Source of the DNA: Candidatus Acidiferrales bacterium
Lineage (GTDB): Bacteria; Acidobacteriota; Terriglobia; Acidiferrales; UBA7541
Length of the DNA: 64,000 bases
Assembly (NCBI GenBank): GCA_044447665.1
Contig: JBIOGB010000021.1
Location: 2,403-66,402, forward strand
Reading direction: 5' to 3'
Shown here one piece after another: positions 28,839 through 63,208 of the stretch (its first letter is position 1; each line of letters begins with the position of its first letter). A program made the position numbers and the translations under genes. The notes below the pieces were generated by a model that worked only from the letters and a program-made list of their open reading frames with translations, was not told the origin of the DNA and did no database searches.

Positions 28839-29399
28839 TCATCCGAGCCAGTGGATCTCCGCAGGCTCTCGCCCGCGAGATTCCGGCCATGCTTTGGGAT
28901 GGCCAAGAATAATGGGCGCAACCACATGGAATCTCTCGGGTAATTTGAGCTCCGCCTTGGTCGATGACAGATTAAGCCAGGGACGCGCAAGGCCAATCCA
29001 GCAAGTGCCCAGCCCTTCGTTGCGAGCCGCGAGCATCAGGTTTTGAGCTGCCAGGCAACAATCTTCCGCAGCTTGAACCTCGGAAGATTTGGCCAGCACC
29101 ATCACAAGTGAAGGCGCGTGATAGAACATCACAAAAGCTGGATCCTCAAGCATCTGGCGGAGACGCGGCTCAAATGAAGTCTGCGAGAAATTTGCAAGCG
29201 TCCAAGCCTTGACGCGTTTACCATTGTCATTGATCCGGTCGCGATCGAGAAGCACAGCAAACGCCCACGGTTGCGCGTTTGTCGCGCTCGGTGCCAGGAT
29301 TGCAGCATCTATCAGGCGTCCCACGGTCGACCGCTCAACGCTCGCGTTCGTATACTCTCGAACCGCGCGGCGATTCCTCATAACTTCCATCAGATCCAT
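28839..29399 (-). CDS. Nitroreductase family protein
   Basis: 'RRAVREY', 'APSATNAQPW', 'AQNLMLAARNEGLGTCWIG'. Confidence 0.9.
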   Translation of the reverse strand: MDLMEVMRNRRAVREYTNASVERSTVGRLIDAAILAPSATNAQPWAFAVLLDRDRINDNGKRVKAWTLANFSQTSFEPRLRQMLEDPAFVMFYHAPSLVMVLAKSSEVQAAEDCCLAAQNLMLAARNEGLGTCWIGLARPWLNLSSTKAELKLPERFHVVAPIILGHPKAWPESRGREPAEIHWLG

Positions 29400-29653
29400 G
29401 AGCTCCTCCCCGGATCCAGATGACTCTCAAAGACACCTCTGCTCGTTTGTTCAGAGGCCTTCCGTGTCCTTCGTCCACCGCGATTGCAGAGATAGTGCGA
29501 AAGCCTCGCCGACCTGACTAGACGTCGCTTTCTCAGGCCAAGCCTCTAAAATTCGGGATAGGGTTCCAAGGTGTAGGGCAATGGGTGCACTTCCCTGGCT
29601 TGCCTCTTCCGTCTAACCGGCTGATGCCTCTTGGCACTCTCCAGCGATTTGAA

Positions 29654-29707
29654 AAGCTGACAGAATCCCGCAAGCAAATCAGTGATGAGGATCACGGCAG
29701 TGCGTGA
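29654..29707 (-). promoter_or_regulatory. CRP/FNR-like box GTGA-tgagga-TCAC (29682-29695), half-site GTGA at 29704, -10-like TGtCAGCTT
   Basis: Same 22-bp tandem spacing and box-to--10 distance as six other island promoters. Confidence 0.6.
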
Positions 29708-29736
29708 TCGTAGGTTGGCAGGAATTGTGGCACAAC

Positions 29737-30045
29737 ATGTTCCCGAGCAGACTTTTCTCCGGCCTCCTTACCGATCTTCATGAATTTACGATGGCGGCGG
29801 GCTACGTCCAGAATCGATCAGACGCCCGCGCAACCTTTGAGCTCTTCGTACGTCATCCGCCCCGCAATCGCAACCATCTGGTCGCTGCAGGTCTCGAACA
29901 AGCTCTCGACTTCCTTGAAAACGTTCACTTCTCAACCCAAGAAATGTCCTACACGAGCAAGATCGTCCAGTTAGGGACCGAACACTCACTTTTCAACGTG
30001 GATGTGACGAGCTTCACAGCTTCGGATTCGGGTCCTGAAGTATAA
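29737..30045 (+). pseudogene. pncB: Nicotinate phosphoribosyltransferase N-terminal fragment
   Basis: 'LLTDLHEFTMAAGY...ATFELFVR...VAAGLEQALDFLENVHF' matches the NAPRTase N-terminus. Similarity stops after about 70 aa. Confidence 0.8.
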
Positions 30046-30109
30046 GGCTTGTGAGCCGGCGATGCCGCGACCCGTTTGTAATAAGCCATTTGCAAATTGA
30101 ACATTCACA

Positions 30110-32599
30110 ATGACCATGTTCCGCAAAGACCGATTCCCGCCCATGTCAACGCGGCAGAACCTCGTGGATTTTTTTTGCGGATTCTCGAGATCCCCAACCG
30201 AGTTCCTCCAATACGATACCGGGTATCGCAGTTGGAGATACACATATACACAAGTAGGCCTGGCCGCGCGTCATTTCGCGGTGCGACTGTCGGAAAACAA
30301 CATTCAGAAGGGTGACAAAGTCATCTTCTGGTCCGAAAACCGTCCCGAGTGGATCGCGGCGTTCTGGGGTTGCGTCCTTGCAGGCGTAATCATTGTACCC
30401 ATCGACCACCGCTCCTCGCTGCGTTTTTTGCGGCATGTTCACGAGATCGTGGATGCGCGATTGATATTGATCGGAGAGGAAGTTCAATTAACCGCCTGGA
30501 AGGGGCAGGCGCCCGCTTGGCGACTTTGCGACCTCGAATGGACCGCGACGGATTGTGAAGCGCCCGCGGTCCCAATCGGCAAGAATGACGTCGTGGAAAT
30601 CGTGTTTACCTCGGGCGCCACCGGCGAGCCCAAAGGCGTCCTGATCACGCATCGCAATATTCTCGCCAATATCGTGTCTCCAGAACGGATTGTTTCTGCT
30701 TACCGCAAATGGTTCCGGCCGGTGCTGCCGCTGCGTTTTCTGAGCCTGATCCCCTTGAGTCACATGTTTGGACAGGTAGTCACAATGTTTATTCTGCCGT
30801 TCATTCCTGGCACCGCCGTCTTCATGCACGGATACAGCCCACACGAAATCGTGCGCCAGATCCGCAGCCGGCGCGTGTCGGTAGTTGTCGCTGTGCCCAA
30901 GATCCTTGAAGTCCTGCGGAAGCACATCCTGTTACAATTTCCGGAAACTGCTGATCCGCCTCCGGCCACGGCACACTGGATCATCCGCTGGTGGCGATAC
31001 CGCCGTTTGCATTGGTGGTTAGGATGGAAGTTTTGGGCGTTTGTGGTCGGAGCAGCACCGCTCGCGAGAGACCTCGAGGAGTTCTGGTCTCGTCTGGGAT
31101 TCGCCGTCATTCAGGGTTACGGACTCACCGAGACGGCACCCGTCGTGGCCTTCAACAACCCTTTCGACATCCAGGAAGGAACAGTCGGCAAGCCTGCCGC
31201 CGGCGTCGAAGTGAAGATCGCGCCGGACGGTGAGATTCTCGTCCGCGGCGACAGCGTAACATCCGGGTACTACCACGCTCCCTCTGAGACCGCGTCAGCA
31301 TTCGAGGACGGATGGTTTCACACCGGTGACATCGGGAGATTTGACGAGGCAGGCAACCTGACGATACAGGGCCGCAAAAAGGAAATGATCGTCACACCGG
31401 AGGGCCTCAACGTATTCCCGGAGGATGTAGAGCATGCGCTGAATCGACTTCCCGGTGTGCGGGAATCCGCAGTAGTGGGCAGAGATCGCGTCCACGCGGT
31501 TCTGGTGCTGCACAACAGCGTAGACGCGGACGAAATTGTCCGCCGGGCCAACTTGCAACTCGAAGACCACCAGAGAATCCGAAGTTTCTCGATATGGCCT
31601 GGTGACCGCCTACCGCGTACGGAAGGCACACAAAAGCTAAAACATGGCGAGATCCAAGCTTGGGTGGAGACCGGGGCTTCTGTCGCGGCAACAGCCACGA
31701 GTGGAGGTGCCGTGGTCGATCTCCTCCGGAAATATGCGCTGGACCGGGCCATCACACCAGAGACAACGCTCGACCAGTTGGGGCTGAGCTCGCTCGATCG
31801 AGTCGAACTCATGCTGGATCTCGAGGAACAGTTCAATATCAGTGTTGACGAATCGCTATTGACCGGCACGCGCACAATTTCCGCTCTAGAGGAAATAAGC
31901 GCTCCACCCAGCGCCCCCGAATTCCCCACCTGGAACCGCTTTTGGCTCGCCAGAATCATTCGCCGCGTGGCTCTTTCCGCACTCTTTATGCCACTCGTTC
32001 GCATGATTGCGCACGCTCGAATTTCGGGCGTCCAGCATTTGGCTTCGCTGCAGGGACCCGTCATTTTTGCGCCGAACCACCAGAGTCACTTGGACACGCC
32101 TTTGATCTTGGCCTCCCTGCCCTCGCGCTACCGTTACCGCGTGGCTCCAGCAGTGTGGAAGGAATACTTCGATGCACACTTTTCTCCGAGCCGTCACACG
32201 CGCTACGAATGGCTTCGGGATAGTCTCACCTACGTGCTCGTGGCGTTCTTCTTCAATGCGTTTCCCATTCCACAGACGGAGGTTGGCGCGCGCCAGTCGC
32301 TGCGCTACCTGGGAGAGTTGGTAGGTGACAACTGGTCCGTATTATTCTTTCCGGAAGGTGAACGAACCGAGGCAGGAGAGATCAAGCACTTTCAACCAGG
32401 TATCGGGTTGATCGCCGGGCGGCTCGGAGTGCCTGTTGTTCCCATTCGATTGCGGGGGTTCGAAAAGATCCTCCCTCGACACGCGCGATGGCCGCGCCCT
32501 GCCAGAGTCGAAATATCCTTCGGACCGCCTCTATACCTGAAGGGCCAAGATTACACTGCTCTGGCAAAGCAGGTGGAAGAAGCGGTCCTCGCGCTGTAG
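30110..32599 (+). CDS. Long-chain acyl-CoA/AMP ligase - acyl carrier - PlsC acyltransferase fusion
   Basis: 'FTSGATGEPKG', 'QGYGLTE', 'FHTGD'. Carrier domain 'LGLSSLDRVEL'. PlsC 'NHQSHLD' and 'FPEGER'. Confidence 0.88.
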   Translation: MTMFRKDRFPPMSTRQNLVDFFCGFSRSPTEFLQYDTGYRSWRYTYTQVGLAARHFAVRLSENNIQKGDKVIFWSENRPEWIAAFWGCVLAGVIIVPIDHRSSLRFLRHVHEIVDARLILIGEEVQLTAWKGQAPAWRLCDLEWTATDCEAPAVPIGKNDVVEIVFTSGATGEPKGVLITHRNILANIVSPERIVSAYRKWFRPVLPLRFLSLIPLSHMFGQVVTMFILPFIPGTAVFMHGYSPHEIVRQIRSRRVSVVVAVPKILEVLRKHILLQFPETADPPPATAHWIIRWWRYRRLHWWLGWKFWAFVVGAAPLARDLEEFWSRLGFAVIQGYGLTETAPVVAFNNPFDIQEGTVGKPAAGVEVKIAPDGEILVRGDSVTSGYYHAPSETASAFEDGWFHTGDIGRFDEAGNLTIQGRKKEMIVTPEGLNVFPEDVEHALNRLPGVRESAVVGRDRVHAVLVLHNSVDADEIVRRANLQLEDHQRIRSFSIWPGDRLPRTEGTQKLKHGEIQAWVETGASVAATATSGGAVVDLLRKYALDRAITPETTLDQLGLSSLDRVELMLDLEEQFNISVDESLLTGTRTISALEEISAPPSAPEFPTWNRFWLARIIRRVALSALFMPLVRMIAHARISGVQHLASLQGPVIFAPNHQSHLDTPLILASLPSRYRYRVAPAVWKEYFDAHFSPSRHTRYEWLRDSLTYVLVAFFFNAFPIPQTEVGARQSLRYLGELVGDNWSVLFFPEGERTEAGEIKHFQPGIGLIAGRLGVPVVPIRLRGFEKILPRHARWPRPARVEISFGPPLYLKGQDYTALAKQVEEAVLAL

Positions 32600-32691: not shown

Positions 32692-34113
32692 TCAGCCCTT
32701 GACGCAAATCAAAGGTACGAGCCGCGCAACTCGCCGCGCCAAACCCACCTGCTCGGCCGCCTGAGCGACGGCATTCACATCCTTGTACGCGCCGGGCGCC
32801 TCTTCGGCAACACCGCGATAGCTACGAGTGCGTATTAGCACACCCTTTTCGGCCAATTCGTCAATCAGCTTGCGCCCCTGCCAGAGCTTCGCAGCCTGTG
32901 TGCGACTCATCGACCGGCCAGCGCCATGGCATGCTGACGAGAACGCAAGATGCTCACTTTGGCCCGTGCCGATTAAGATATAGGATTCCGTTCCCATCGT
33001 TCCGCCAATCAGCACCGGCTGCCCCGCTCCCCGCAGCGAAGCCGGCAATTCCGGATGGCCGGGGCCAAAGCTGCGCGTTGCACCTTTGCGATGAACGAAC
33101 AGTTCTCGACTTTCGCCGTCGATGACGTGCCGCTCAATCTTGCAGGTATTGTGGGAAACGTCGTAAAGCAGCGCGAGTTCGGCACCCGGAATGAGCTCGG
33201 CGAAAGCGCCGCGAACCAGATGCGTGATGATCTGCCGGTTCGCCAAAGCGCAATTCGTGGCGGCGCGCATCGCGCCAAGATAGTGTTGCCCCAGTTCCGA
33301 GCGGATCGGGGCACAGGCAAGTTCACGATCCGGAATGGGCCGATAACCCTCGATCACCATGGTTTTCAGATAGTCTGTTCCCACCTGGTGGCCGAGACCT
33401 CTCGATCCACAATGAATGCTTACGACAATGTCGTTTTGCTGCAGCCCTAGTACAGAGGCGGTCGGGGAATCGAAGATCTCAGCCACCCGCTGCACCTCCA
33501 GATAGTGGTTGCCCGATCCCAGCGTTCCCATCTCGTGAGCTTGGCGCTTCTTCGCGTGATGCGAAACGCACTCGGGCTTCGCGTCAGATGCACTTCCACC
33601 TTCTTCAATGCGCTCGAGATCTTTTGGGATTCCGTATCCGCGAGCCACAGCCCATTGCGCGCCGCCGCGCAGCATCTCATCCATCTCGTTTTCGCTGAGC
33701 AGGATCGCACCCGTACTGCCGACTCCGGCAGGGATTTTTCTGAACAGCGCATCCGCAAGGTCGGCTTTGCGCGGCTCTAGCCGGTCCGCTGCCAGCCCCG
33801 TTTGTAACGCGCGTACTCCACAGGAAATATCGAAGCCAACGCCTCCGGCAGAGATCACTCCACCCTCATCGGGATCGAAGGCGGCGACACCGCCAATTGG
33901 AAAACCGTAGCCCCAATGAGCATCCGGCATTGCGTAAGCCGCTCGTTGGATTCCGGGCAAAGTAGCGACATTGGTGAGCTGCTCGCGAACTTTTTCATCC
34001 ATGTCACGGATCAATTGCTCACCGGCATAGATGATTCCTGGGACGCGCATCTGCCCCGTCGGTTCGATGCACCACTCGAATTCAGAATGGCGCGTGAGCG
34101 ATTGCAGGTTCAT
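32692..34113 (-). CDS. rtcB: RNA-splicing/repair ligase RtcB (archaeal/eukaryotic-like type)
   Basis: 'MPDAHWGYGFPIGGV', 'GFDISCGVR', 'GTLGSGNHYLE', 'HCGSRG', 'SHN', 'HGAGR', 'EEAPGAYK'. Confidence 0.95.
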   Translation of the reverse strand: MNLQSLTRHSEFEWCIEPTGQMRVPGIIYAGEQLIRDMDEKVREQLTNVATLPGIQRAAYAMPDAHWGYGFPIGGVAAFDPDEGGVISAGGVGFDISCGVRALQTGLAADRLEPRKADLADALFRKIPAGVGSTGAILLSENEMDEMLRGGAQWAVARGYGIPKDLERIEEGGSASDAKPECVSHHAKKRQAHEMGTLGSGNHYLEVQRVAEIFDSPTASVLGLQQNDIVVSIHCGSRGLGHQVGTDYLKTMVIEGYRPIPDRELACAPIRSELGQHYLGAMRAATNCALANRQIITHLVRGAFAELIPGAELALLYDVSHNTCKIERHVIDGESRELFVHRKGATRSFGPGHPELPASLRGAGQPVLIGGTMGTESYILIGTGQSEHLAFSSACHGAGRSMSRTQAAKLWQGRKLIDELAEKGVLIRTRSYRGVAEEAPGAYKDVNAVAQAAEQVGLARRVARLVPLICVKG

Positions 34114-34131
34114 ACATTCTCCAGCGGCGGC

Positions 34132-34548
34132 TCAGACGTCAACCACGCACTGCGCAACCCATTGACCATCTTGCTCACGATGCACTCGAAGCGCGGTGAC
34201 GGTGGCCCCCTTTGGCTCAACCCCAACCCGATGGCGTTCAGGATCAACTCTCTCGCCCACAAGAGTCCCGGTCAGAGAGCACCCAGACGTAACGACCCGA
34301 AACGTCCTGAACAACATCGTGCGCACCGCCATTTCATAGATGACCGCGTTGAGCCAACTGACAAAAAGCAGTTCGAGGTCGGGCGCATCGCAGCGGACTT
34401 CAACGGTTTCGCTTTCCCTAATCCTCGAAACGTCGGCCACAACCGCCGTGAGGGCAACCGCCGCTTGTTCAAATGCCTCTTCGACAGAGGCCCCGAATCC
34501 ACGCACGCCTATGTCCGAACCATGCGAAAAATGTTCCCAGGTGGCCAT
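34132..34548 (-). CDS. Archease
   Basis: 'WEHFSHGSDIGVRGFG', 'LFVSWLNAVIY', 'EPKGAT', C-terminal 'VVDV'. Directly upstream of rtcB. Confidence 0.92.
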   Translation of the reverse strand: MATWEHFSHGSDIGVRGFGASVEEAFEQAAVALTAVVADVSRIRESETVEVRCDAPDLELLFVSWLNAVIYEMAVRTMLFRTFRVVTSGCSLTGTLVGERVDPERHRVGVEPKGATVTALRVHREQDGQWVAQCVVDV

Positions 34549-34615
34549 CCTCTTCACGCATGCCCTGAGACTGGGCCGAGTTACGAACTTCGTTCGATTT
34601 CCCGTCGGACCCGAA

Positions 34616-34903
34616 TCACAACCTCGCGAGGAATTCTTTCCACGGCGTCGCCCCGAGTGTCTCCGTCGTCGAGTGCCCGTAAGCGCGGATAATCATTACC
34701 GCCTTCTCGATTTCTTTTGGATCATCCGTCTCCACGACATCAACGACATCGAACCGGCCGAGAGTCGCAAAACTATGTTTCCACTCCAACCCACGGCAAT
34801 CGGCCTTGATCTTGGTCGATACGGTTTCGGCCAACTTCTTAAAATCCTTGGGCTCCCGGAAAGCGTCGGGTGAAAATCGGCTTAGGATCACGTAAGTCGC
34901 CAT
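34616..34903 (-). CDS. GYD-domain protein
   Basis: AGGAGG RBS, 'MATYVILSRF...ATLGRFDVVDVVE...STTETL'. Confidence 0.82.
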   Translation of the reverse strand: MATYVILSRFSPDAFREPKDFKKLAETVSTKIKADCRGLEWKHSFATLGRFDVVDVVETDDPKEIEKAVMIIRAYGHSTTETLGATPWKEFLARL

Positions 34904-35330
34904 ACAATACCTCCTTCTAAGATTCATGCCGGTCGCTACCAAAGGTGTTTCGCAAACGATCAAATTCCGGTTTTACCAGCTGGCGTCTTTTTTCAAGACT
35001 TGCCTTGCTTCGCCAATTTCTTAGGTTTCGGGCTGCGCCACCGTTTCCGTTGCAAGCCAGAAGCCAAAAATTTAAGGGCAGCGGCAGGCTGCGAAGTGTT
35101 TCCGACCCTCTCGGGCCGGTGCGTCGAAACTCCCGGGCGCCTCGCTTACGCTTCGTGCCTGGCCGCTGCCTCAAACCGAAGGATGAAAGACTTGCGACTG
35201 GTCAAACCCTGGTTGTCGCTTCGCACCACATCAGAAGGCGACCAAGGGGAATTTCTGTGCTGCGGATTTATTCAATCCGTTGAGTCTCGGAAACTCTCTC
35301 CCATCGCATTCCCCATCCTCCGATGCTTCG

Positions 35331-35394
35331 TTTTTAGCTAACGTGTACTAAAAATGCTGTGACCTGGCTCACCCCTCGAAGTGATGAGCGTTAC
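35331..35394 (-). promoter_or_regulatory. Tandem CRP/FNR-like boxes TGTGA-cctggc-TCAC (35359-35372) and GTGA-tgagcg-TTAC (35381-35394), -10-like TAAAAA
   Basis: 22-bp spacing. Upstream of GYD-archease-rtcB, though about 430 nt from the first gene. Confidence 0.65.
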
Positions 35395-35516: not shown

Positions 35517-35966
35517 TCAAGTTGCTTTGACGGATGGGATTCGAACAATTTCAACGGAACAAAGCGCGTGGCGGAGAACAGCTTGCGATGTGCTCCCGAT
35601 CAGAAATCGGTCGATACCCTTGCGGCCATGGGAGCCCATAAAGATCAGATCAGCATCCCACTGCACCGCCCTGTCGAGGATGGCGGTTTTCGGTTCACCT
35701 TCTTCGATAACCGTATGCACCTGGAAACCTGCCGATCGAAGCTGTTGCGCGGTCCGCTCCCCCAATTCTTTCCCTTCTTTCAACCTCTCCCGCTGCGCGG
35801 CCTCAAGTGTTTCCACCTGTCCCACATATGCGTAAGGGATGATCACGGGCGGAACGACCACGTGGAAGACGCACACTTCCGCGCCTTCTGGCCTCATCTG
35901 CCGCACAACAGCCTGCGTGGCGGCTTCCGAGTATTTGGAGTCGTCAACCGCCAGCAAGATCTTCAT
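35517..35966 (-). CDS. Universal stress protein
   Basis: 'KILLAVDDSKYS', 'DLIFMGSHGRKGIDRFLIGSTSQAVLRHALCSV'. Confidence 0.93.
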   Translation of the reverse strand: MKILLAVDDSKYSEAATQAVVRQMRPEGAEVCVFHVVVPPVIIPYAYVGQVETLEAAQRERLKEGKELGERTAQQLRSAGFQVHTVIEEGEPKTAILDRAVQWDADLIFMGSHGRKGIDRFLIGSTSQAVLRHALCSVEIVRIPSVKAT

Positions 35967-36021
35967 GGGCAAGATCCTCTCCCCTTCGAGCAAATTGCAC
36001 GAGTCCAAAGGAGCCTAGGGA

Positions 36022-55351: not shown

Positions 55352-55358
55352 ACAGTCT

Positions 55359-56033: not shown

Positions 56034-56377
56034 AAGTCCTCCATCTCCAAGTATGCCAATTCGAGTTCATTGCCACTCACAAATGTGGTCATTGTCTCGC
56101 CGCACGCGGGACACGCTGTGACGTAGTTGACGACCTCGAATTCGCTGCCACATCGCGGGCAGCGATGACGCTGCGCTCGCCGCTCGATCTCCAGAATGAC
56201 TGACTCCATCTCCGTTTCCTTGACCAGCGCCTCAAAACAGAAACTCAGGGCATCCGGGTCAACGCCGGCCAGATCTCCTATGCGAATTACAATTTTTGCC
56301 AATCTCATCGCCGGCCGGAGTTGCGCTTCCGCGCGGACTGCGTCTAGGACGGAGTTGGCGATTGCGAATTCGTGCAT
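56030..56377 (-). CDS. hypA: Hydrogenase maturation nickel metallochaperone HypA
   Basis: N-terminal 'MHE', two CxxC motifs. Confidence 0.95.
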   Translation of the reverse strand: MHEFAIANSVLDAVRAEAQLRPAMRLAKIVIRIGDLAGVDPDALSFCFEALVKETEMESVILEIERRAQRHRCPRCGSEFEVVNYVTACPACGETMTTFVSGNELELAYLEMEDL

Positions 56378-56381
56378 GGCA

Positions 56382-57443
56382 TCAACAAATACGAGGAAGC
56401 TGGTCGCCCGCGAGCATGTCCACGATCCGCATAGTGCCAAGAGTCGTGCGCACGACCACCAGGCCTGGATCCTCGGCGGTCACGGTGCCGATGATTTGGG
56501 CTTCGCGTCCGAGTGGATGACGCCGCATCGCATCTAACAGCGGTTCCGCCGCGCCGGGTTCCACGATGGCCACGAGTTTTCCTTCGTTGGCAACGTAGAA
56601 CGGGTCCAAACCCAACATCTCGCATGCGCCGCGCACTTCTTCGCGAATTGGAATGCTACGCTCCTCAAGCGTCATCCCAACACCGGATCGCGCAGCAATC
56701 TCGTTGAGCGAGCTGGACAACCCGCCGCGGGTCGGGTCTCTCATGCAGCGAATGCCCTCGGATGTCTTCAACATCTCGGCGACAAGGGAATGCAGGGGAG
56801 CGCTGTCACTTCGTACCGGGTTTTCAAACTCCAGGCCTTCGCGCACAGCGAGGATGGCGATCCCGTGTTCGCCGATGGGACCGCTTAGCAGGATGCGGTC
56901 GCCCGGGCGGGCAAGATCGGCGGACAAGTGCAAACCGGGCTTCACCGAACCAATTCCGGAGGTGTTGATGAACATTCCGTCGCAGCTTCCCTTCTCCACG
57001 ACTTTCGTGTCGCCCGTGACGACTTCGACCTGCGCTGCCGCAGCCGCGTTCCGAAACGACTCCACAACACGGCGAAGCGTCTCAAACGGAAGTCCCTCCT
57101 CCAGGATAAATGCCGCGCTGAGATAAAGTGGGCGCGCTCCCCCCATCGCCAGATCGTTGACGGTTCCATGGACGGCCAGCGACCCGATGTCGCCGCCCGA
57201 AAAAAAGAGAGGCTTCACAACGAATGAATCCGTCGTAAAGGCCAAGCATTCTCCGTTCACATTCACAATCGCCTGGTCATCGAGACGAGAAAGCACAGGG
57301 TTTTCGAATGCAGGCAAGAAAAAACGCTGGAGCAAATCGGCACTCAATCTCCCGCCGCTCCCGTGGCCCAACAGCACACGTTCAACCGCCCGCAAGGGTA
57401 CGGGACACGAAAGAGAGCTTAATGAGGGGGCTTGGTTAGCCAT
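56382..57443 (-). CDS. hypE: Hydrogenase maturation protein HypE
   Basis: 'GHGSGG', 'TTDSFVV', 'RDPTRGG', C-terminal 'LPRIC'. Confidence 0.96.
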
Positions 57444-58551
57444 TGCAGGCCCTTTCTTGCAAAACCTTGTGCCTTCGATAGCGGTAGTACGCTGCGCATG
57501 CACCTTCCGCGGAGACCATGGGCGCACCGAGCGGACTCTCCGGCGTACACCTGTTTGCAAATGCCGGACAATCCGGCGGCTTTTTAAGCCCCTTGAGAAC
57601 CTGCGCGCTGATGCATTCGGTGGGTTCTTCGACCTTGATCTCTGACATGCCGAAGATTTTCTCTGCGTCATGCGCCGAGAACTCAGGGCGTATGCGCAGA
57701 CCGCTCCGCGGGATGGTGCCGATCCCGCGCCACTTCTGGTCGCACACTTCAAATACGGTTTCGACGATTTGCTGCGCCGGTAGATTCCCTTCACGCGTCA
57801 CGGAACGCACGTATTGGTTTTCCATCACTGCTTGCCCTTCTTCGAGCTGCCGCACCAGCATCAAAATGGCCTCCAGAAGATCGACTGGCTCGAAACCACC
57901 CACTACAATCGGAACGCGGAACTCCTTTACCATCTCTTCGTATTGCCGATAGCCCATTACCGTGCACACGTGGCCGGGGGCAATAAATCCTTGCACCCGA
58001 TTGTCAGGGGATCCCATAAGTAGCCGCATAGCAGGCGGAACCAAGACGTGGGATGCCAGAACGGAAAAGTTATTGAGTCCCTCCCGCCGCGCTTGCCAGA
58101 CGGCCATGGCGTTTGGGGGAGCAGTGGTTTCGAATCCGATTGCTAGAAAAACAACCTTCCGGCTGGGATTGGCCTTTGCAATCTTGAGCGCTTCGAGAGG
58201 CGAGTACACCACGCGCACATCGCTCCCGCTCGCCTTGGCGTGAAAGAGATCGGAAGTCGACCCTGGAACGCGCAGCATGTCGCCATAAGAAACGAGCGTC
58301 AAGTCCGTACGCGCGGCAAGCTCAAGAGCCTTGTCGATCGTTTCCAACGGAGTGACACAGACCGGGCACCCGGGCCCGTGAACGAGTTCCACTTCCCGTG
58401 GCAGAAGCTCGTCGATTCCGTACCGCATGATGGTATGCGTTTGGCCGCCGCAAATCTCCATCAACACCCACGGGTGTGTTACACGCTCGCGGATCTCTTG
58501 CGCGAGAGCGAGGGCAATCTTCTCGTCACGATACTCGTCGAGGTATTTCAC
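57436..58551 (-). CDS. hypD: Hydrogenase maturation protein HypD
   Basis: 'MEICGGQTH', 'GPGCPVC', 'GFETT', 'PGHV'. Confidence 0.96.
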
Positions 58552-58823
58552 TGCACCGTCTCCGAAGGTCCTTGCGCCGAAGGCGATAACTCGCCTTCGA
58601 GAAGCCCCATCGCTTCCAGAAGCTGGTAGGTGCGCTCAGCCTCTTCGCGGTCCACCCGGCTGATCGCGAATCCAACATGCACCACGACGTAATCGCCTAC
58701 CCCTGCTTCGGGGACAAAATCCAGGCAGACCTGATTGACGATTCCGCCGAATTCGACGCGGCCAGCGCACACGCCATCTTTTTTTGAAATGTCGAGAATC
58801 TTACCGGGAATTGCTAAGCACAT
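58548..58823 (-). CDS. hypC: Hydrogenase chaperone HypC
   Basis: 'MCLAIPG', 'VVHVGFAI'. Confidence 0.95.
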
Positions 58824-58861
58824 GAAACGCTCCAGAGACCCAGCCTCTATTCGAAACCAGC

Positions 58862-59410
58862 TCACCCTTCCAAGGCCGGAATCGCCACACCTTTTTCTTC
58901 CGCTCCAACTGCCTCACATACAGAAGATTCGTTGGAAGGACCCCATCGGCAAAGTTCCGTCACTGCAGCTTCGACCAGAGCCGGCAAGGCTTGTAGCACG
59001 GGAATAGAAAGCACAGTGCCAAGTTCAGTAATCAAAGGCTGAACACCCAGGAGCACGATCTCTTTGGGTTCATAACCCATCATGCGAAGGGCATTCAAGA
59101 TATCCGCCAACGCCAGTTCGTGGACATTGCCATTCCCGGGAATTGAGCGGAGATCCTCGCCCGCGATCCGGAAAACCGTTCCCGGGGTAGCTCCCACGTC
59201 CACTGCGTCTAAAACCAAGAGACACGACGCATCACAAATGTACGGCACGAGCTCCAGCCCTTTCGTCCCGCCTTCCACCAAACTCACAAAGGGAGGAAGT
59301 CTCGGATCCTCCTCCAGATGCCGCAGCGCGAAAAGACCGATGGCGTCGTCGGAGCGGATGAGATTCCCCAGTGCTAGCACTACTATTTTCGGTGCGTCCG
59401 AAGGATCCAT
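58862..59410 (-). CDS. Hydrogenase maturation endopeptidase (HyaD/HybD)
   Basis: 'LGNLIRSDDAIG', 'EGGT', 'LDAV', 'VHE'. Confidence 0.92.
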   Translation of the reverse strand: MDPSDAPKIVVLALGNLIRSDDAIGLFALRHLEEDPRLPPFVSLVEGGTKGLELVPYICDASCLLVLDAVDVGATPGTVFRIAGEDLRSIPGNGNVHELALADILNALRMMGYEPKEIVLLGVQPLITELGTVLSIPVLQALPALVEAAVTELCRWGPSNESSVCEAVGAEEKGVAIPALEG

Positions 59411-59467
59411 GCGTCATTCCAGTTCTGCGAGCTGTGCCGCCGCGCAAGACATTTTTCCAGGCGGCCA

Positions 59468-60202
59468 CTAATCCTTGTGGTTGGCGGCTTTTGATTCTTG
59501 CACTTCTGCTTCCGGCAGAAATTTATAACCGGTAAAAATGCTTTCGATCAGGCCGTTGCGTTCTTCCGAGGAGACAAGCACTGCGCTGTACACGTGATGA
59601 ATCACAAAGATGAAAAACGCAAACATAATCAAGAAATGGCCAAGTCTTAGATAAGAGATGTCGATTAGGCGCGGAAGCCAGCCGATGAAAAACGACAGAA
59701 CTCGATTGCTCACGGTGTAACTATAAAGGGCCAGCCCCGTCACGATCTCTACAAACATCACGAGGTACATCACAGTGTACGTGGCTGTGGCCAGGGCATT
59801 GTGACCAATTACATGCACGATGTTCCGGCGAAAGAAGGTGTAGTAGGCGACCATGTCGCCGATTCCTCGCCATTGCTCACGCCGGATGGGAAGGAACGCT
59901 CTCCAGGCCGCCCATTTGTTCCCCTCAAAAAACCAGTACATCCGCAGAAGGAACGCCGCAATAAATACGGAGGCAGCCACCAGGTGAATGAAGCGCATGG
60001 TGCCCATCACGTACGCGGTTCTGGATCGTGCAATGAGAAATGGATTATGCATGTAGTAGCCGGTGAAGGAGAGAACGACAACGGAGGCGAAGATAAACCA
60101 GTGCGAAGCCCGGACCGGAAACTCCCACACATATACCCGGACGAAATCGTGTCCGGTGAATGGGGAGCGAAATTTGGCCCAAGCGTGTGTGGCAGAACTC
60201 AT
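59468..60202 (-). CDS. Ni/Fe-hydrogenase b-type cytochrome subunit
   Basis: 'VWEFPVRASHW', 'RFIH', 'GHNAL', 'HFLIM...IHHVY'. Confidence 0.92.
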   Translation of the reverse strand: MSSATHAWAKFRSPFTGHDFVRVYVWEFPVRASHWFIFASVVVLSFTGYYMHNPFLIARSRTAYVMGTMRFIHLVAASVFIAAFLLRMYWFFEGNKWAAWRAFLPIRREQWRGIGDMVAYYTFFRRNIVHVIGHNALATATYTVMYLVMFVEIVTGLALYSYTVSNRVLSFFIGWLPRLIDISYLRLGHFLIMFAFFIFVIHHVYSAVLVSSEERNGLIESIFTGYKFLPEAEVQESKAANHKD

Positions 60203-60215
60203 CGGCGCCTCCCTT

Positions 60216-61928
60216 CTAGTGAACCTGCACTTCGGCGAAGCGGTGACCGCGCGCGTCGGTTACGTGCACAGCGCACGCCAGACAGGGATCGAAAGAATGG
60301 ATTGTGCGCAGGATTTCGACGGGACGCTCGGGGTCCGCGACGGGAGTCTTCAACAGGGCAGCTTCATAAGCGCCGCGCTGACCTTTTGCGTCCCGCGGCC
60401 CTGCATTCCAGGTGGTAGGAACTACACACTGGTAATTCTTGATGGCGCGATCTTCGATTTGAACCCAATGTCCCAATGCTCCGCGAGGAGCTTCATGGAA
60501 ACCCCAGCCCCGGGCAGACTTCGGCCAAGTGGCAGGGTCCCACTTTTCGCCCTCGTGAATTCGGAGGTTTCCATGAGCGAGATTAACGCCGAGTTCATCA
60601 ATCCACTTCGGAACCTCTCTGGCCATCAGTTGAGTCTCAATCGCGCGTGCCGCAATCCGCCCGAGCGTGGAAAACAGTGCCGTTGCCGGAGCGTTCAGTT
60701 TGGTCAGAACGCCGTTAACCAGCTCCTTGACTCCTGCATGCCCTGAAGCGTACGCCACCAGCATTCGAGCAAGCGGACCTACTTCCATGGGAGTATCCAT
60801 GTAGCGGGGCGATTTTAGCCAGGAATACTTTTGATCAACATTCAAGTGCTCAAACGGAGGGGTGGGCCCAGTGAACTTCGGCTGCGTCTCCCCGTCATAG
60901 GGGTGCTTGCCGGCAGAATCGCCGCCCGAATACTCATACCAGGAATGCGTTACATACTCGGTGACACTCGCCGGATCCACTGGATGAACTTGGGACAAGT
61001 CGCGCCCGAGGATGGCCCCGCGTGGCAGAAAGTATCGCCCAGCGTCATGAATTCCTCCCATGGGATATTCCCCATAAGAAAGGAAGTTTCCCAGCCCTTC
61101 ACCGCGCCCGAACCAATCGCGATAGAAACCAGCGACAGCCAGCACATCCGGAATATAAACCTGCTCGACAAAGGTCTGCGCCGTCTTGGCAATCTCCGCA
61201 AGAAACGTAATTCGCTCTGAATTGATCGGAGCTTGAGGCTCGTTTGAATCCATTGCACATGCCATTCCACCCACGAGGTAGGTCTGAAGGTGCGGGTTTT
61301 TGCCTCCAAGCACGGCATGGATGCGGATGAATTCCCGCTGAAATTCCAGCGCCTCGATGTAGTGTGCTACAGCAAGCAAATTTGCTTCGGGTGGCAGATG
61401 GTAGGCTGGGTGACCCCAATATCCGCTCGAAAACAGGCTCAACTGCTTGCTCTCCACCAGGGCCTTAACGCGGTCCTGGATCGCCTTAAAATAATTGCGA
61501 CTGGACTTCGGCCAGCTCGAGATGGATTCGGCGAGTTGCGAAGTCTTGGCCGGGTCGGCTCTCAGGGCCAGCGTAACGTCCACCCAGTCCAGCGCGTGCA
61601 GGTGATAGAAGTGAATTACGTGGTCCTGCACATACTGCGTTGCTCCGATGATGTTCCGTATGATCCGCGCGTTATCGGGAACTTCGATTCCGAGCGCGTC
61701 TTCGACCGCACGCACTGAAGTGAGCGCGTGAACTGTGGTGCAGACTCCGCAGATGCGTTGCGCCCAAATCCAGGCTTCACGCGGGTCACGACCGCGCAAA
61801 ATCAGCTCAATCCCTCGGAACATGGTTCCGGAACTCCAAGCGTCGGTGATTGCTCCACCCTCCACCTCTGCTTCGATACGCAGATGCCCTTCAATGCGAG
61901 TGACTGGGTCTACGACAATTCGTGCCAT
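60216..61928 (-). CDS. Group 1 [NiFe]-hydrogenase large subunit
   Basis: 'DPVTRIEGH', L1 'QRICGVC', L2 'FDPCLACAVH' plus a 15-aa cleavable tail. Confidence 0.96.
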   Translation of the reverse strand: MARIVVDPVTRIEGHLRIEAEVEGGAITDAWSSGTMFRGIELILRGRDPREAWIWAQRICGVCTTVHALTSVRAVEDALGIEVPDNARIIRNIIGATQYVQDHVIHFYHLHALDWVDVTLALRADPAKTSQLAESISSWPKSSRNYFKAIQDRVKALVESKQLSLFSSGYWGHPAYHLPPEANLLAVAHYIEALEFQREFIRIHAVLGGKNPHLQTYLVGGMACAMDSNEPQAPINSERITFLAEIAKTAQTFVEQVYIPDVLAVAGFYRDWFGRGEGLGNFLSYGEYPMGGIHDAGRYFLPRGAILGRDLSQVHPVDPASVTEYVTHSWYEYSGGDSAGKHPYDGETQPKFTGPTPPFEHLNVDQKYSWLKSPRYMDTPMEVGPLARMLVAYASGHAGVKELVNGVLTKLNAPATALFSTLGRIAARAIETQLMAREVPKWIDELGVNLAHGNLRIHEGEKWDPATWPKSARGWGFHEAPRGALGHWVQIEDRAIKNYQCVVPTTWNAGPRDAKGQRGAYEAALLKTPVADPERPVEILRTIHSFDPCLACAVHVTDARGHRFAEVQVH

Positions 61929-61937
61929 GAAACCCTC

Positions 61938-63062
61938 CTATGACTGAGCAGCGTTGTCCGGCTTTGCCTTCTGTTTTTCGGGAGGCGTCGTTTCGTGCCG
62001 TGGACGGTCCCGTACTGCACTGGCGATTCCGTGAAGAATCGTTGCGCCAGCAACCGCACCCGTTAGGACCAAGCCAATCTCACCCGCGGGAACATCCACG
62101 CCAAAGCCAGGCACCTGCGGCAACCGCTCATAAAACGGCGACTTGGTATCCCAGAAACGGTGGGAGGCACATGCCAGGCAGCCGTGGCCTGCTTTCACCG
62201 GCCAGCTCGTCTGATCGTTCCAACGAACGTTGGGGCAGTTGAAGGTGGCTTGCGGCCCTTTGCAGCCCATCTTATAGAGGCACCAGCCCTTTCGGTGCCC
62301 TTCGTCTCCCCACTCCTCGACGTAGCGTCCGGCGTCGTAGTGAGCGCGCCGCTCGCACTGGTCATGAATGATGCGGCCGTAGGCGAATAGCGGCCGGCGG
62401 TACTGATCCGTGGCAGGCAGTTCGCCGAAGGTCAAGTAGTGCACCAGAACCGCAACGGTATTCGCGGGGTTTTGCGGACATCCAGGCATGTTGATAAGGT
62501 TGATCCCAGGCACGGCTTCCTCGAGCCCTACCGCGCCGGTGGGATTCGGATGAGCGGCTACCAAACCGCCGTCCCAAGCGCAAGCGCCCACGGCAATGGA
62601 TGCGGCCGCATTTCCACAGACTTCGCGCGCAAGGTCGATTGCCGTTCGCCCAGCCACCGTACAGTAGACCCCACCGTCCGCCAGAGGTATGGCCCCTTCC
62701 ACGACCGCTAAGTACTTTCCTTTCTCTTCCTTGACAACACGCTGGAGCGCTGCCTCGGCGTGCTTTCCGGCTCCTGCCATGATGAGTTCGTGGTACTCCC
62801 AGGAAAGTAAATCCAGGACGACTTCCAGCACAGTTGGGTGACTGGCCCGTAAGATGGATTCGGAATTTCCGGCGCAGTCCTGGAATTGTAGCCAGACCAG
62901 TACAGGCTTCTTGGCCTTGCCAAGAGCTTCAACGACTTGTGCCAGGTAGCGGTCGGGCAGAGCCAAGGTCGCCACCATTGCACTGCAGAACTCAATAAAG
63001 CGCCTGCGAGAAACTCCATGAGCTTTCAATGCGCCGGAGAGAGACTGTCCTTCAGGAAACAT
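61938..63062 (-). CDS. Group 1 [NiFe]-hydrogenase small subunit (Tat signal, C-terminal TM anchor)
   Basis: 'SRRRFIEFC', 'QDCAGNSES', 'PGCP', 'HDQCERR', 'CLYKMGCKGP', 'WPVKAGHGCLAC'. Confidence 0.95.
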   Translation of the reverse strand: MFPEGQSLSGALKAHGVSRRRFIEFCSAMVATLALPDRYLAQVVEALGKAKKPVLVWLQFQDCAGNSESILRASHPTVLEVVLDLLSWEYHELIMAGAGKHAEAALQRVVKEEKGKYLAVVEGAIPLADGGVYCTVAGRTAIDLAREVCGNAAASIAVGACAWDGGLVAAHPNPTGAVGLEEAVPGINLINMPGCPQNPANTVAVLVHYLTFGELPATDQYRRPLFAYGRIIHDQCERRAHYDAGRYVEEWGDEGHRKGWCLYKMGCKGPQATFNCPNVRWNDQTSWPVKAGHGCLACASHRFWDTKSPFYERLPQVPGFGVDVPAGEIGLVLTGAVAGATILHGIASAVRDRPRHETTPPEKQKAKPDNAAQS

Positions 63063-63144
63063 GCGTCACCTCAGTTGGGGGGAGACCCGGCGGGATTCTT
63101 GCTTGGGTTCAAAGGTTACCTCGTCCGCCCTTCATGGCTGATTT

Positions 63145-63208
63145 GGTGTAGCAAGGTCCTTAACCAGCTTCAGTGACCGGCATCACCTATCAAAGTGACC
63201 TTGCTCAC
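63145..63208 (-). promoter_or_regulatory. Two perfect GTGA-N6-TCAC boxes (63173-63186, 63195-63208), extended -10-like TGcTACACC
   Basis: 22-bp spacing. Directly upstream of the hydrogenase operon. Confidence 0.78.

Follow-up and report, generated by a model that had tools for sequence, protein, structure and literature searches.

A GTGA-N6-TCAC box ahead of maintenance and hydrogen-uptake genes in a proposed regulon of an uncultured acidobacterium

Described systems and gene content of the island

For the mycobacterial DosR/DevR regulon, both the gene list and tandem Dev boxes have been published, and its repertoire parallels that of the locus studied here, as originally predicted from the shared, unusual mix of genes (PMC3177182, PMC5309233). 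M. smegmatis hydrogenases are under DosR control (PMC13098282), and usp genes of Acidobacterium capsulatum are induced at nanomolar O2 (PMC11636273). The closest known system is the lxa locus of Burkholderia cenocepacia. The lxa study had pointed to overlap with the DosR regulon for a locus under a CRP/Anr-type motif, so a DosR-like kit with CRP-type control is not new as an idea (PMC3721108). Low oxygen induces both of these nearest analogues, DosR and lxa (PMC3721108, PMC3177182). By analogy, lxa in Burkholderia and DosR in mycobacteria would be functional counterparts of the regulon described here, with different wiring.

We analyzed a stretch of 64,000 nucleotides (the window), in which a soil acidobacterium appears to keep ribosome-hibernation, chaperone, RNA-repair, nucleotide-supply and hydrogen-uptake genes behind a common DNA switch within ~34 kb (the island, 28839-63208). 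The nearest named relatives of the host are Candidatus Acidiferrales/Acidoferrum (Acidobacteriota, class Terriglobia), which fits the earlier assignment to a probable acidobacterium. Families were assigned by Pfam and NCBIfam profile scans of the window ORFs, and operon boundaries were set from gene spacing and box positions. The scans recovered within the island every gene family that had been listed, and added GYD, a frameshifted YbaK-like gene, a second PRPP synthetase, a DUF2934 protein, an acyl-AMP ligase-carrier-acyltransferase, an Acs-E1alpha-E1beta-E2-ACP operon and a NicO-type nickel transporter. The features, including the GTGA-N6-TCAC boxes, are as follows.

28839..29399, minus: small nitroreductase of generic type, 186 aa (PF00881, E 8e-27); the box at 29682 lies 283 nt away
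29682..29695: box, half-conserved partner 22 bp to the right
29704..30045, plus: second pncB remnant, 113 aa, NAPRTase N-terminal domain only (PF17767, profile positions 1-67 of 125)
30004..30017: box, ~100 nt upstream of the next gene
30110..32599, plus: acyl-AMP ligase, carrier domain and acyltransferase, 829 aa (PF00501, PF00550, PF01553)
32692..34963, minus: operon of GYD (34616-34963), archease (34132-34557) and RtcB (32692-34113) (PF08734, PF01951, PF01139)
35056..35324, minus: conserved leader or sRNA whose start coincides with the transcription start predicted for the box promoter; contains structured motif R1 (35072-35175, 103 nt), then a U run
35359..35394: primary box (35359-35372) and 7/8 secondary box (35381-35394), 22 bp apart, facing the leader and GYD-archease-RtcB
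35517..38515, minus: PRTase-dienelactone-hydrolase fusion (37022-38515; Pfam), YbaK-like gene with a located frameshift (36470-37149; Pfam), conserved unknown protein (36146-36451) and USP (35517-36008; Pfam, NCBIfam UspF-like), probably a single operon
38546..38559: box in the divergent promoter of the PRTase-hydrolase and 151-aa genes, half-conserved partner 22 bp away
38625..39080, plus: 151-aa protein without a Pfam family; helix-hairpin-helix/glycosylase-like from language-model features alone
39135..42079, minus: Hsp20-DUF2934 (41564-42079; Pfam), second PRPP synthetase (40347-41360; Pfam, TIGR01251 above cut-off) and CapA/PGA_cap (39135-40232; Pfam)
42197..42232: primary box and 7/8 secondary box, 22 bp apart, upstream of Hsp20
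42387..45725, minus: DUF2934 protein (45174-45725; Pfam), class II B12-dependent RNR (43226-45028; TIGR02504 NrdJ_Z, 678 bits, cut-off 400) and HPF (S30AE) fused to a cold-shock domain (42387-43052; Pfam)
45793..45977: divergent control region with two boxes, 45793 with a 7/8 partner at 45815 (DUF2934-RNR side) and 45964 with a half-conserved partner (OsmC operon)
46004..51843, plus: operon (Pfam) of OsmC (46004-46552, first), acyl-CoA synthetase, E1alpha, E1beta, E2 and acyl carrier protein (51592-51843, last)
52155..63062, minus: group-1 [NiFe]-hydrogenase operon (Pfam, NCBIfam) of small subunit with Tat signal (61938-63062), large subunit (60216-61928; nearest solved structure 3MYR), cytochrome b (59468-60202), maturation protease (58862-59410), HypC/D/E/A/B/F (53021-58865) and NicO-type Ni transporter (52155-52973)
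63173..63208: pair of exact boxes, 22 bp apart; the hydrogenase small-subunit gene lies 111 and 133 nt downstream of them
63415..64000, plus: isocitrate-lyase-family gene (PF00463), cut at the window end

The pncB gene, predicted to be a fragment, is indeed one; it is 76% identical to a full-length pncB elsewhere in the genome (G000:C7:81069-82487). The divergent isocitrate-lyase-family gene is 213-235 nt away from the boxes at 63173..63208, and from this position it is possibly a regulon member through a control region in common with the hydrogenase operon.

In the comparison with DosR-type loci, other mycobacteria stood in for the M. tuberculosis genome. The Acs-E1-E2 genes match a block of the DosR-type cluster L073 of Mycolicibacterium peregrinum at 49-69% identity (Acs 63%, E1alpha 58%, E1beta 69% and E2 49% to genes in or beside DosR-type loci), against at most 43% for the own-genome paralogs of E1alpha, E1beta and E2. 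The class II RNR shows 51% identity to its mycobacterial homolog versus 30% to an own-genome RNR paralog of unclassified type, and the PRTase-hydrolase fusion is 48-51% identical to mycobacterial homologs over its full length. In the mycobacterial loci, a Dev box lies upstream of two PRTase matches and of hypA. The predicted closeness to DosR subfamilies thus held in part: on sequence, the likeness is real for RNR, PRTase-hydrolase and Acs-E1-E2 (48-69%), but is at family level only for the nitroreductase, HPF, Hsp20 and RtcB. RtcB is only 27-35% identical to its actinobacterial matches, HPF and Hsp20 differ in architecture from those of the DosR regulon, and CapA had no match in four actinobacterial proxy genomes. 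Acg-type nitroreductases have ~330 aa; an Acg assignment was rejected for the 186-aa, generic protein found here.

We observed that the core genes also co-occur in related genomes, as had been anticipated, with gene order and boxes kept in the Candidatus Acidiferrales contigs L079, L081, L089, L172 and L173. The PRTase-hydrolase/YbaK-like/unknown/USP order is retained in L079, L089 and L172, and archease-RtcB adjoins this module in L172 and L173. The Hsp20-DUF2934/PRPP synthetase/CapA order is found in L089 and L173, and the OsmC-Acs-E1alpha-E1beta-E2-ACP operon in L079. The ligase-carrier-acyltransferase gene adjoins RtcB in L173, a nitroreductase homolog lies within the syntenic module of L089, and the same contig has a 151-aa gene, likewise without a Pfam family, in the place and orientation of the 151-aa gene here. 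Counterparts exist for box 38546 (L089:9888, L081:9897, L173:7472) and for the Hsp20 box at 42197 (L079:7535, L089:5591, L172:3828), and tandem boxes occupy the place of the 45793..45977 region in L079 (18942/18964) and L173 (1400/1422).

The GTGA-N6-TCAC box within and beyond the island

The shared promoter motif that had been proposed proved to be real. The exact GTGA-N6-TCAC palindrome occurs 10 times in the window and 9 times within the island, every time in intergenic DNA, and exact matches to the longer form TGTGA-N6-TCACA lie at 30003 and 45792. Of the promoters in this 34-kb stretch, about eight bear a box, and in most cases a second, weaker one lies exactly 22 bp upstream of it. Genome-wide, we counted 124 sites versus ~53 expected; 39 of them are intergenic, with non-coding DNA making up only ~7%. 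The island is the densest box cluster of the genome (9 in 34.4 kb; Poisson P ~2.5e-6). At 41 of the 124 sites, a partner with at least 6/8 half-site bases lies exactly 22 bp away, compared to three or fewer at any other offset. A 'TA' peak is found 22 nt past the box (11 of 71 promoters); most other offsets give 1-4, and the runners-up reach 8 at +33 and 6 at +5 and +44.

The box defines a genome-wide regulon of ~40 promoters, ~8 in the 34 kb and ~30 elsewhere, CRP/FNR regulator genes included. Targets outside the island comprise four tandem-USP genes, a second Hsp20-DUF2934, a second OsmC, a second PRTase, a P-type ATPase, an FDH-like molybdoenzyme, a USP-glycogen phosphorylase pair and a multihaem cytochrome. 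A Zn-ADH gene and a CBS-pair gene lie in the C15 cluster adjoining a regulator paralog, with no box mapped before either.

No group-1 hydrogenase besides the island copy was found in the genome. In 52 of 72 metagenomic relatives hydS is preceded by an exact box, with varying spacers, versus a single site in the ~240 kb remainder of these loci; membership of the hydrogenase operon in the regulon is conserved. Of the suggestion that a hydrogenase is coupled to the stress genes in one island, the common regulation stood, but the physical linkage did not extend to the relatives. Because the operon is box-regulated yet unlinked there, the single island is partly an accident of this genome.

Regulators and the inducing signal

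The window contains no CRP/FNR gene; the genome has four CRP/FNR paralogs, all on contigs outside it, and a box lies directly upstream of the C14, C68 and C7 copies. Three of the four combine a CRP-type RETVTR recognition helix with four invariant cysteines (C31, C34, C43 and C82, invariant with RETVTR across 24 aligned sequences). The cysteines are arranged as C-x2-C-x8-C, held on an N-terminal extension, plus one in the beta-roll, whereas the canonical FNR set is C-x2-C-x5-C plus C122; likewise, the FNR box is TTGAT-N4-ATCAA and the box here is CRP-type. The nearest solved relatives of the regulators are CRP and GlxR of M. tuberculosis, both of which bind TGTGA-N6-TCACA, but alignment to M. 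tuberculosis CRP shows that the cAMP-binding Arg-Thr/Ser pair is replaced. The RETVTR helix would fit the GTGA half-site. No Dev box was found when looked for in the island, and together with the CRP-type helix and the boxed regulator genes this argues for the predicted CRP/FNR-type control instead of DosR.

We propose that CRP/FNR-family activators, whose genes lie on other contigs, bind the boxes. All four genes would themselves have upstream boxes, and activation would occur from a class II position, with the box centre near -41.5. The paralogs would most likely sense oxygen or redox state by an Fe-S cluster or thiols. Because the cysteine pattern is non-canonical for FNR and the box is CRP-type, oxygen sensing is what we infer; a thiol, zinc or other ligand is possible. 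With the regulon on, ribosomes would be parked by HPF-CSD, proteins held by Hsp20 and USPs, RNA mended by RtcB/archease, and dNTPs made without oxygen by the B12-dependent class II RNR. PRPP synthetase and PRTase-hydrolase may sustain PRPP, nucleotide and NAD salvage, the OsmC-linked acyl-CoA/2-oxoacid dehydrogenase module would run, and H2 would be taken up for energy via the membrane-bound [NiFe]-hydrogenase. No cytochrome bd oxidase was found in the genome (84% complete), so the classic microaerobic respiratory arm is not evident.

Judged as a whole, our best explanation is probable: the stretch would be the densest portion of a genome-wide regulon in an uncultured Candidatus Acidiferrales-like Terriglobia acidobacterium. 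It is rather unlikely, though worth weighing, that the regulon and regulators are as proposed but answer to a signal other than oxygen, in a general programme for stationary phase, starvation or other stress, for which SdrP of Thermus, a CRP-family regulator, offers a model. The likeness to hypoxia regulons would then reflect a common 'non-growth' toolkit. Such a signal would suit a target set in which generic maintenance genes predominate (USPs, Hsp20, HPF, OsmC), the non-canonical cysteines and the lack of a high-affinity oxidase among the genes searched. However, four invariant cysteines in a CRP/FNR scaffold without the cAMP-binding Arg point to oxygen or redox, as do an oxygen-independent class II RNR so distant from its own-genome paralog, the multihaem cytochrome and FDH-like enzyme among the targets, the alcohol dehydrogenase of the C15 cluster, and the low-oxygen induction of the closest analogues.

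The two exact TGTGA-N6-TCACA sites, and nearest solved structures that are cAMP-binding CRP proteins, would also suit a catabolite-type cAMP-CRP regulon with cyclic-nucleotide-responsive regulators. We consider this extremely unlikely, given the replaced cAMP-phosphate-binding residues, three invariant cysteines on the N-terminal extension, and targets in stress and maintenance instead of carbon-source catabolism. Recent acquisition as a mobile island, for example from Actinobacteria, would explain the DosR likeness by direct transfer of one block, and is very unlikely. Its GC content (56.2% versus 58.3% for the genome, the 2.5th percentile of 34-kb windows), the unusually high identity to mycobacterial Acs/E1/E2, RNR and PRTase-hydrolase, and the decayed pncB and YbaK genes speak for it. 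Yet marks of a mobile island are absent (no tRNA was found in the island, and the ORFs scanned gave no integrase or transposase family), the modules and boxes occur family-wide in varied arrangements, boxes and regulators are scattered across many contigs, and in relatives the hydrogenase and the stress genes lie apart. Single modules may have been transferred in ancient times.

The R1 RNA motif

The leader or sRNA at 35056..35324 had no match in Rfam. Its nucleotide identity is 89-91% in L172, L079 and L089, and 20 of 28 base pairs in R1 show covariation across 23 sequences. We also observed that R1 lies downstream of a box and precedes archease-RtcB and small heat-shock genes.

Gene content of the island and its conservation in relatives

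Six-frame ORFs of the window, which makes up nearly all of a 66.8-kb contig in a 3.86-Mb MAG (84% complete), were searched against Pfam and NCBIfam. Every gene family named in the original prediction was recovered in its place within the island (28839-63208). The stress-type genes encode a nitroreductase, RtcB with archease, a USP, a PRTase fused to a dienelactone-hydrolase-type domain, CapA/PGA_cap, Hsp20 fused to DUF2934, a fusion of S30AE/HPF with a cold-shock domain (HPF-CSD), OsmC and a class II adenosylcobalamin RNR (NrdJ/NrdZ; TIGR02504, 677.6 bits vs a cut-off of 399.95). Genes beyond the original list were also found. A GYD gene precedes archease, and OsmC is followed by an operon for acyl-CoA synthetase, E1alpha, E1beta, E2 and ACP. 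The others encode a second PRPP synthetase, a DUF2934 protein, an acyl-AMP ligase-carrier-acyltransferase and a YbaK-like protein, whose gene is broken by a frameshift here and whole in relatives. For three different proteins, the nearest named relatives were Candidatus Acidiferrales/Acidoferrum MAGs (Acidobacteriota, class Terriglobia; NCBI taxonomy). The GC content of the island is ~2 points under the genome mean (2.5th percentile). The window is free of tRNA and tmRNA genes, and none of the ORFs scanned in it belongs to an integrase or transposase family. The individual features discussed here are:

29704-30045(+), remnant of a second pncB gene
35056-35324(-), leader ahead of the GYD-archease-RtcB genes
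35072-35175(-), R1, a structured RNA motif within that leader
36470-37149(-), YbaK/aminoacyl-tRNA-editing-like gene
38625-39080(+), gene for a 151-aa protein
42387-43052(-), HPF-CSD gene
46004-51843(+), OsmC-Acs-E1alpha-E1beta-E2-ACP operon
61938-63062(-), hydS, hydrogenase small-subunit gene

The HPF-CSD gene encodes both domains in one 221-aa protein, and this fusion is kept in all related clusters seen (L079, L089 and L173, contigs of other Candidatus Acidiferrales). The OsmC operon is without E3. The YbaK-like gene lies in two frames with a break near 36690, while relatives hold an intact 171-aa gene in the same place; the split is either a true frameshift or an assembly error. The 151-aa protein has no Pfam family and is encoded divergently from the PRTase-hydrolase promoter. 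Its language-model features lie near those of small helix-hairpin-helix/glycosylase-like proteins that are automatically named 'DNA methylase'. In L089, the same place is taken by a 151-aa gene without a Pfam family, matched by position and length only.

Modules and their order are shared by the contigs of relatives that carry close homologs. The series runs from HPF-CSD through Hsp20, (nitroreductase), PRPP synthetase, (CapA) and the divergent 151-aa gene to PRTase-hydrolase, and then on to YbaK, a small gene of unknown function, (USP), archease-RtcB and the ligase-carrier-acyltransferase. A further recurring unit is the OsmC-Acs-E1-E2-ACP operon. These contigs also hold extra USPs, CBS proteins, GroEL and Lon-like proteases, and their equivalent promoters have exact copies of the GTGA-N6-TCAC palindrome (the box). 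The genes had been expected to stay together in related genomes, and the core stress genes do co-occur, with boxes, in related contigs. The view of the locus as one island held in part: the core stress module and its boxes are kept, but their union with the hydrogenase genes in a single 34-kb block is a peculiarity of this genome. We dropped the candidate of a conserved, physically joined hydrogenase-stress island, because the genes upstream of hydS in relatives are not island genes. The conserved unit is therefore the regulon together with the core stress module.

In a 200-genome sample of the phylum, PRTase or hydrolase homologs were present in 34 genomes, mostly as two adjacent genes and not as a fusion. 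On L173, an IS element (HTH_Tnp_1 and rve; 8388-9532) sits between a PRTase gene without the hydrolase part and archease, which indicates that the module is subject to rearrangement.

The GTGA-N6-TCAC regulon and its candidate regulators

The original prediction had proposed a shared promoter motif. The FNR consensus TTGAT-N4-ATCAA was rejected as this motif: four sites were seen vs 1.7 expected, and 8 of 100 shuffles reached four, so it is not enriched. The shared motif is instead the CRP-type palindrome GTGA-N6-TCAC, which is enriched in both window and genome. Ten sites lie in the window, nine of them inside the island and all nine between genes. The genome holds 124 sites vs ~53 expected; 39 are intergenic, including six of the island's nine, and intergenic DNA makes up ~7% of the genome by a crude ORF call. 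With nine sites in 34.4 kb, the island is the densest cluster of boxes in the genome (Poisson P ~2.5e-6). We observed a marked preference for tandem sites: 41 of the 124 have a partner box, with six or more of the eight half-site bases, at a distance of exactly 22 bp, and no other offset has more than three such cases. Most primary boxes in the island have such a partner. A 'TA' lies 22 nt past the box in 11 of 71 oriented promoters, far above most other offsets. This fits a -10 element with the box centre near -41.5, i.e., a class II arrangement. As judged from box positions and gene spacing, with predicted operon limits, ~8 transcription units span nearly all 34 genes.

Outside the island, the genes that come first after an intergenic box include four for tandem USPs, others for a second Hsp20-DUF2934 and a second OsmC, and a stand-alone PRTase gene whose boxes are in tandem. 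They also include genes for a P-type ATPase, an FDH-like molybdoenzyme (with an OmpR-type regulator encoded divergently), a multihaem cytochrome adjoining the regulator gene on contig C7, a USP-glycogen phosphorylase pair and CFA synthase. Read from its gene families, this target set has the profile of a putative non-growth or low-oxygen programme. No equivalents of tgs1, narK2/narX or fdxA were seen among the annotated box targets, and cytochrome bd was not found in the 84%-complete genome. A second box-rich cluster (G000:C15:45000-65000, on another contig of the same MAG) holds three tandem-USP genes, glycogen phosphorylase and a regulator paralog. Genes for a Pat-like ADP-forming acetyl-CoA synthetase/GNAT, a zinc alcohol dehydrogenase, a CBS-pair protein and a PAS-sigma54 activator also lie in this cluster, with no box mapped ahead of them.

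The window holds no CRP/FNR-family gene, and the genome has four paralogs, on contigs C14, C68, C15 and C7. Boxes immediately precede those on C14, C68 and C7; the one on C15 is part of the second box-rich cluster. The fold combines a cNMP-binding-like domain with HTH_Crp_2. The C14, C68 and C15 copies and 21 metagenomic homologs share four invariant Cys residues, in an N-terminal C-x2-C-x8-C and one in the beta-roll. Their recognition helix, RETVTR, is invariant as well. Among solved structures, M. tuberculosis CRP (Rv3676) and Corynebacterium GlxR are closest. Both of these proteins bind TGTGA-N6-TCACA through an equivalent Arg-Glu...Arg helix, and the RETVTR helix thus fits the box. The Arg-Thr/Ser pair that holds the cAMP phosphate is replaced, as seen in an alignment to M. 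tuberculosis CRP, which argues against a cAMP switch.

The four Cys residues suggest an Fe-S or thiol redox sensor. Canonical FNR ligates a [4Fe-4S] cluster through C-x2-C-x5-C and C122 and reads the TTGAT-N4-ATCAA box with an E..SR helix. Our regulators resemble FNR in their Cys-rich N-terminus, but their motif is C-x2-C-x8-C, the fourth Cys is in the beta-roll and not at the C122 position, and the helix is of the CRP-like RE..R type. Since the Cys spacing is unlike that of canonical FNR, we can only infer oxygen sensing by these proteins. Features in common with both FNR/Anr and CRP/GlxR are the cNMP-binding-like fold with HTH_Crp_2, a palindromic box with GTGA half-sites and a 6-bp spacer, and box spacing compatible with class II activation.

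We weighed these candidates against DosR-type control. The Dev box GGGAC-N4-GTCCC has no match at up to one mismatch within 28839-63208; the only two in the window lie at 2032 and 5292. In mycobacterial and Nocardia control loci, perfect Dev boxes were found upstream of two PRTase hits and in a Nocardia locus, and a one-mismatch box upstream of hypA. No NarL-type DosR with haem-GAF kinases DosS/DosT was seen among the window ORFs scanned. CRP/FNR-type control in place of DosR, as originally predicted, therefore remains the probable reading: the island is without a Dev box, the helix fits the GTGA-N6-TCAC box, and boxes precede three of the regulator genes.

The regulon offers an operator, candidate sensors and ~40 target promoters for testing. 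Its gene content predicts that one switch would control ribosome hibernation together with RNA repair, dNTP synthesis without oxygen and the uptake of H2. What signal acts on the switch, which cofactor the regulators carry, how the paralogs share the work and what H2 uptake does for the cell are all inferred. Terriglobia rank among the most abundant bacteria in soil, and their persistence through anoxic or starved periods is poorly understood. The organism occurs in public sequencing runs, all DNA and at small shares, from soil, sediment and aquatic metagenomes.

The hydrogenase and the structured RNA motif R1

The island contains a complete operon for a membrane-bound [NiFe]-hydrogenase, with a small subunit carrying a Tat signal, a large subunit, cytochrome b, a protease, HypC/D/E/A/B/F and a NicO-type nickel transporter. 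This is the feature set of the group 1 membrane-bound uptake type, and the large subunit is nearest to structure 3MYR, followed by Hyd-5 and Hyd-1. In metagenomic loci with enough upstream sequence, an exact box lies ahead of hydS in 52 of 72, mostly at 107-155 nt and with variable spacers; the ~240 kb of remaining sequence in these loci holds just one site. The conserved box provides a route to predicting when these bacteria consume H2, using metatranscriptomes. The usual proximal Fe-S cluster motif of a group 1 small subunit is C-x-G-C, with four-Cys ligation. Here, residues ~62-69 are DCAGNSES: the second Cys is replaced by Asn, and this Asn is kept in 79 of 79 metagenomic relatives. The ligand set of the proximal cluster is thus probably unusual.

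A stretch of ~400 nt without a convincing ORF separates the box at 35359 from GYD-archease-RtcB. The first ~270 nt form the leader 35056-35324(-), which begins at the expected start of transcription from a class II promoter and is 89-91% identical in the related contigs L172, L079 and L089. The 3' part of this leader recurs on contig C26 of the same genome, 191 nt past a box and 40 nt ahead of an Hsp20-like gene (copy at G000:C26:9644-9746(+)). The core, R1, is a 103-nt element of four helices with invariant loop nucleotides.

To characterize R1 we used a covariance model of 103 positions. Full-length copies were found in 14 of 40 genomes of the acidobacterial family, while a 150-genome sample of the phylum gave none beyond it. 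Across 23 sequences, 92% of cells pair, vs 27-45% with the partners slid, and compensatory changes occur in 20 of 28 pairs; none of 500 shuffles reached the observed values. Of 19 loci, 11 have an exact box at a distance of 171-217 nt upstream, and in seven a small heat-shock gene begins 40-63 nt downstream. R1 is found in leaders of archease-RtcB and of small heat-shock genes. Rfam 15 gave no match in the window at gathering scores and none in the leader at E values up to 1. We conclude that R1 is a real structured RNA tied to the box regulon, and it provides a separate lead for RNA biology.

R1 may be a riboswitch-like leader, a thermometer or an sRNA. In the window, its outer helix is followed by a U run, which is terminator-like. 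In the mechanism we propose, R1 would be transcribed from GTGA-N6-TCAC promoters and might work either as a switch, riboswitch-like or protein-binding, or as an sRNA driven by the box, so that it would add an RNA layer to a low-oxygen or dormancy-type programme. It is possible, if on balance slightly doubtful, that R1 as a new box-transcribed switch or sRNA forms, together with the four-Cys sensor and the Asn-ligated cluster, a mechanism distinct from those of DosR and lxa.

Comparison with the lxa and DosR regulons

The nearest described analogue is the lxa locus of Burkholderia cenocepacia J2315, which comprises 50 low-oxygen-induced genes (Sass et al. 2013, PMC3721108). A 4-bp inverted repeat with a 6-bp gap occurs at 17 of its intergenic points and at more sites elsewhere in that genome, and three CRP/Anr-related regulators are present (PMC3721108). 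The locus encodes USPs, alpha-crystallin, a nitroreductase, a class II RNR and a cation ATPase; co-induction extends to isocitrate lyase, and the authors noted the overlap with the DosR regulon (PMC3721108). The acidobacterial system has the same plan, with clustered genes and a 4-bp inverted repeat with a 6-bp gap at nine island sites and further intergenic sites genome-wide, a likeness judged on the layout of the repeat. It also has several CRP/Anr-related paralogs (four copies, three with upstream boxes), and shares with lxa the USPs, Hsp20, nitroreductase, class II RNR, cation ATPase and a pentose-phosphate/nucleotide theme. Next to the island lies an ICL-family gene.

However, the two differ in phylum, and the regulators here have a CRP-type recognition helix with C-x2-C-x8-C, and the boxes here stand in tandem at a fixed 22 bp. 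The [NiFe] uptake hydrogenase with hyp genes, RtcB/archease, CapA, the PRTase-hydrolase and HPF-CSD fusions and the RNA leader motif set our system apart, whereas PHA synthesis, cytochromes and ABC transporters belong to lxa and were not seen here. Induction and phenotype have been shown for lxa; for the acidobacterial system, low-oxygen induction is a prediction. In Acidobacterium capsulatum, usp genes rise at nanomolar O2 (PMC11636273). We found no description in the literature of such a regulon, operator or regulator in Acidobacteriota. The predicted distinguishing points are the four-Cys regulator with CRP-type DNA recognition, the 22-bp tandem boxes, the conserved hydrogenase member and the RNA element.

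The DosR-regulon gene families named in the original prediction agree with published DevR lists (PMC3177182, PMC5309233). These hold Rv0079 (ribosome-associated factor), Rv0570 (B12-dependent RNR), Rv0571c (PRTase), Rv0573c (pncB2), Rv0574c, Rv2630, Rv2631 (RtcB), hspX, the nitroreductases Rv2032/Rv3127/Rv3131, several USPs and ctpF, and tandem Dev boxes are needed at every promoter (PMC3177182, PMC5309233). In M. smegmatis, the hydrogenases Hhy and Hyh are under DosR control (PMC13098282). At the level of gene repertoire, the island and its regulon parallel this profile in USPs, alpha-crystallin, nitroreductase, nrdZ, the Rv0571c-type PRTase, pncB2, the CapA-like Rv0574c, RtcB, a ribosome-associated factor, a ctpF-type ATPase, a CBS protein, tandem operators (required at DosR promoters) and, as in M. 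smegmatis, hydrogenases within the regulon.

Proteins were compared with those of Mycolicibacterium vanbaalenii, M. peregrinum, Mycolicibacter algericus and Nocardia vermiculata, as proxies for M. tuberculosis. For mycobacterial loci only Pfam-confirmed ORFs were used, since greedy ORF calling on high-GC DNA gave spurious ORFs. Over its full length, the PRTase-hydrolase fusion shares 48-51% identity with a protein of Mycolicibacterium vanbaalenii. The RNR is 51% identical to the class II enzyme adjoining the PRTase gene in Mycolicibacter algericus, and 30% to its own-genome paralog. The M. peregrinum locus L073 has counterparts of Acs (63%), E1alpha (58%), E1beta (69%), E2 (49%) and the hydrolase domain (54%), as well as HypA/B. 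Other genes of this locus encode two tandem USPs, an HPF-type factor, a CBS protein, a flavodoxin, an Acg-type nitroreductase and two WS/DGAT proteins, and it is thus a typical DosR-type cluster. RtcB reaches 27-35% identity to the actinobacterial proxies; the nitroreductase, HPF and Hsp20 differ from their DosR-type counterparts in size or architecture. CapA had no match in the four proxies, which is no evidence of its absence in M. tuberculosis.

Because identities and architectures split in this way, the proposed likeness to DosR is orthology-grade for RNR, PRTase-hydrolase and Acs-E1-E2, which are 48-69% identical to genes in or beside mycobacterial DosR-type loci, but family-grade for nitroreductase, HPF, Hsp20 and RtcB. 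Further differences are the CRP/FNR-family regulator, vs a NarL-type response regulator with haem-GAF kinases, the lack of the Dev box in the island, the other subfamilies or architectures of nitroreductase, HPF and Hsp20, and a group 1 membrane-bound uptake hydrogenase that is not Hhy or Hyh. Together with mycobacterial DosR and Burkholderia lxa, the regulon adds evidence for a recurring 'non-growth survival' toolkit under different regulators across phyla. The close sharing of the Acs-E1-E2, nrdZ and PRTase-hydrolase modules suggests, at the level of protein identity, an exchange between phyla.

The Acs-E1-E2 counterpart spans L073:1-4629, and own-genome E1/E2 paralogs are just 34-43% identical. 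The pncB remnant at 29704-30045(+) is a 113-aa N-terminal piece of NAPRTase, the first ~90 residues of a second pncB, and shares 76% identity with the complete pncB of contig C7. The next promoter box falls inside the remnant. It looks like a decayed regulon copy, recalling pncB2 of the DosR regulon.
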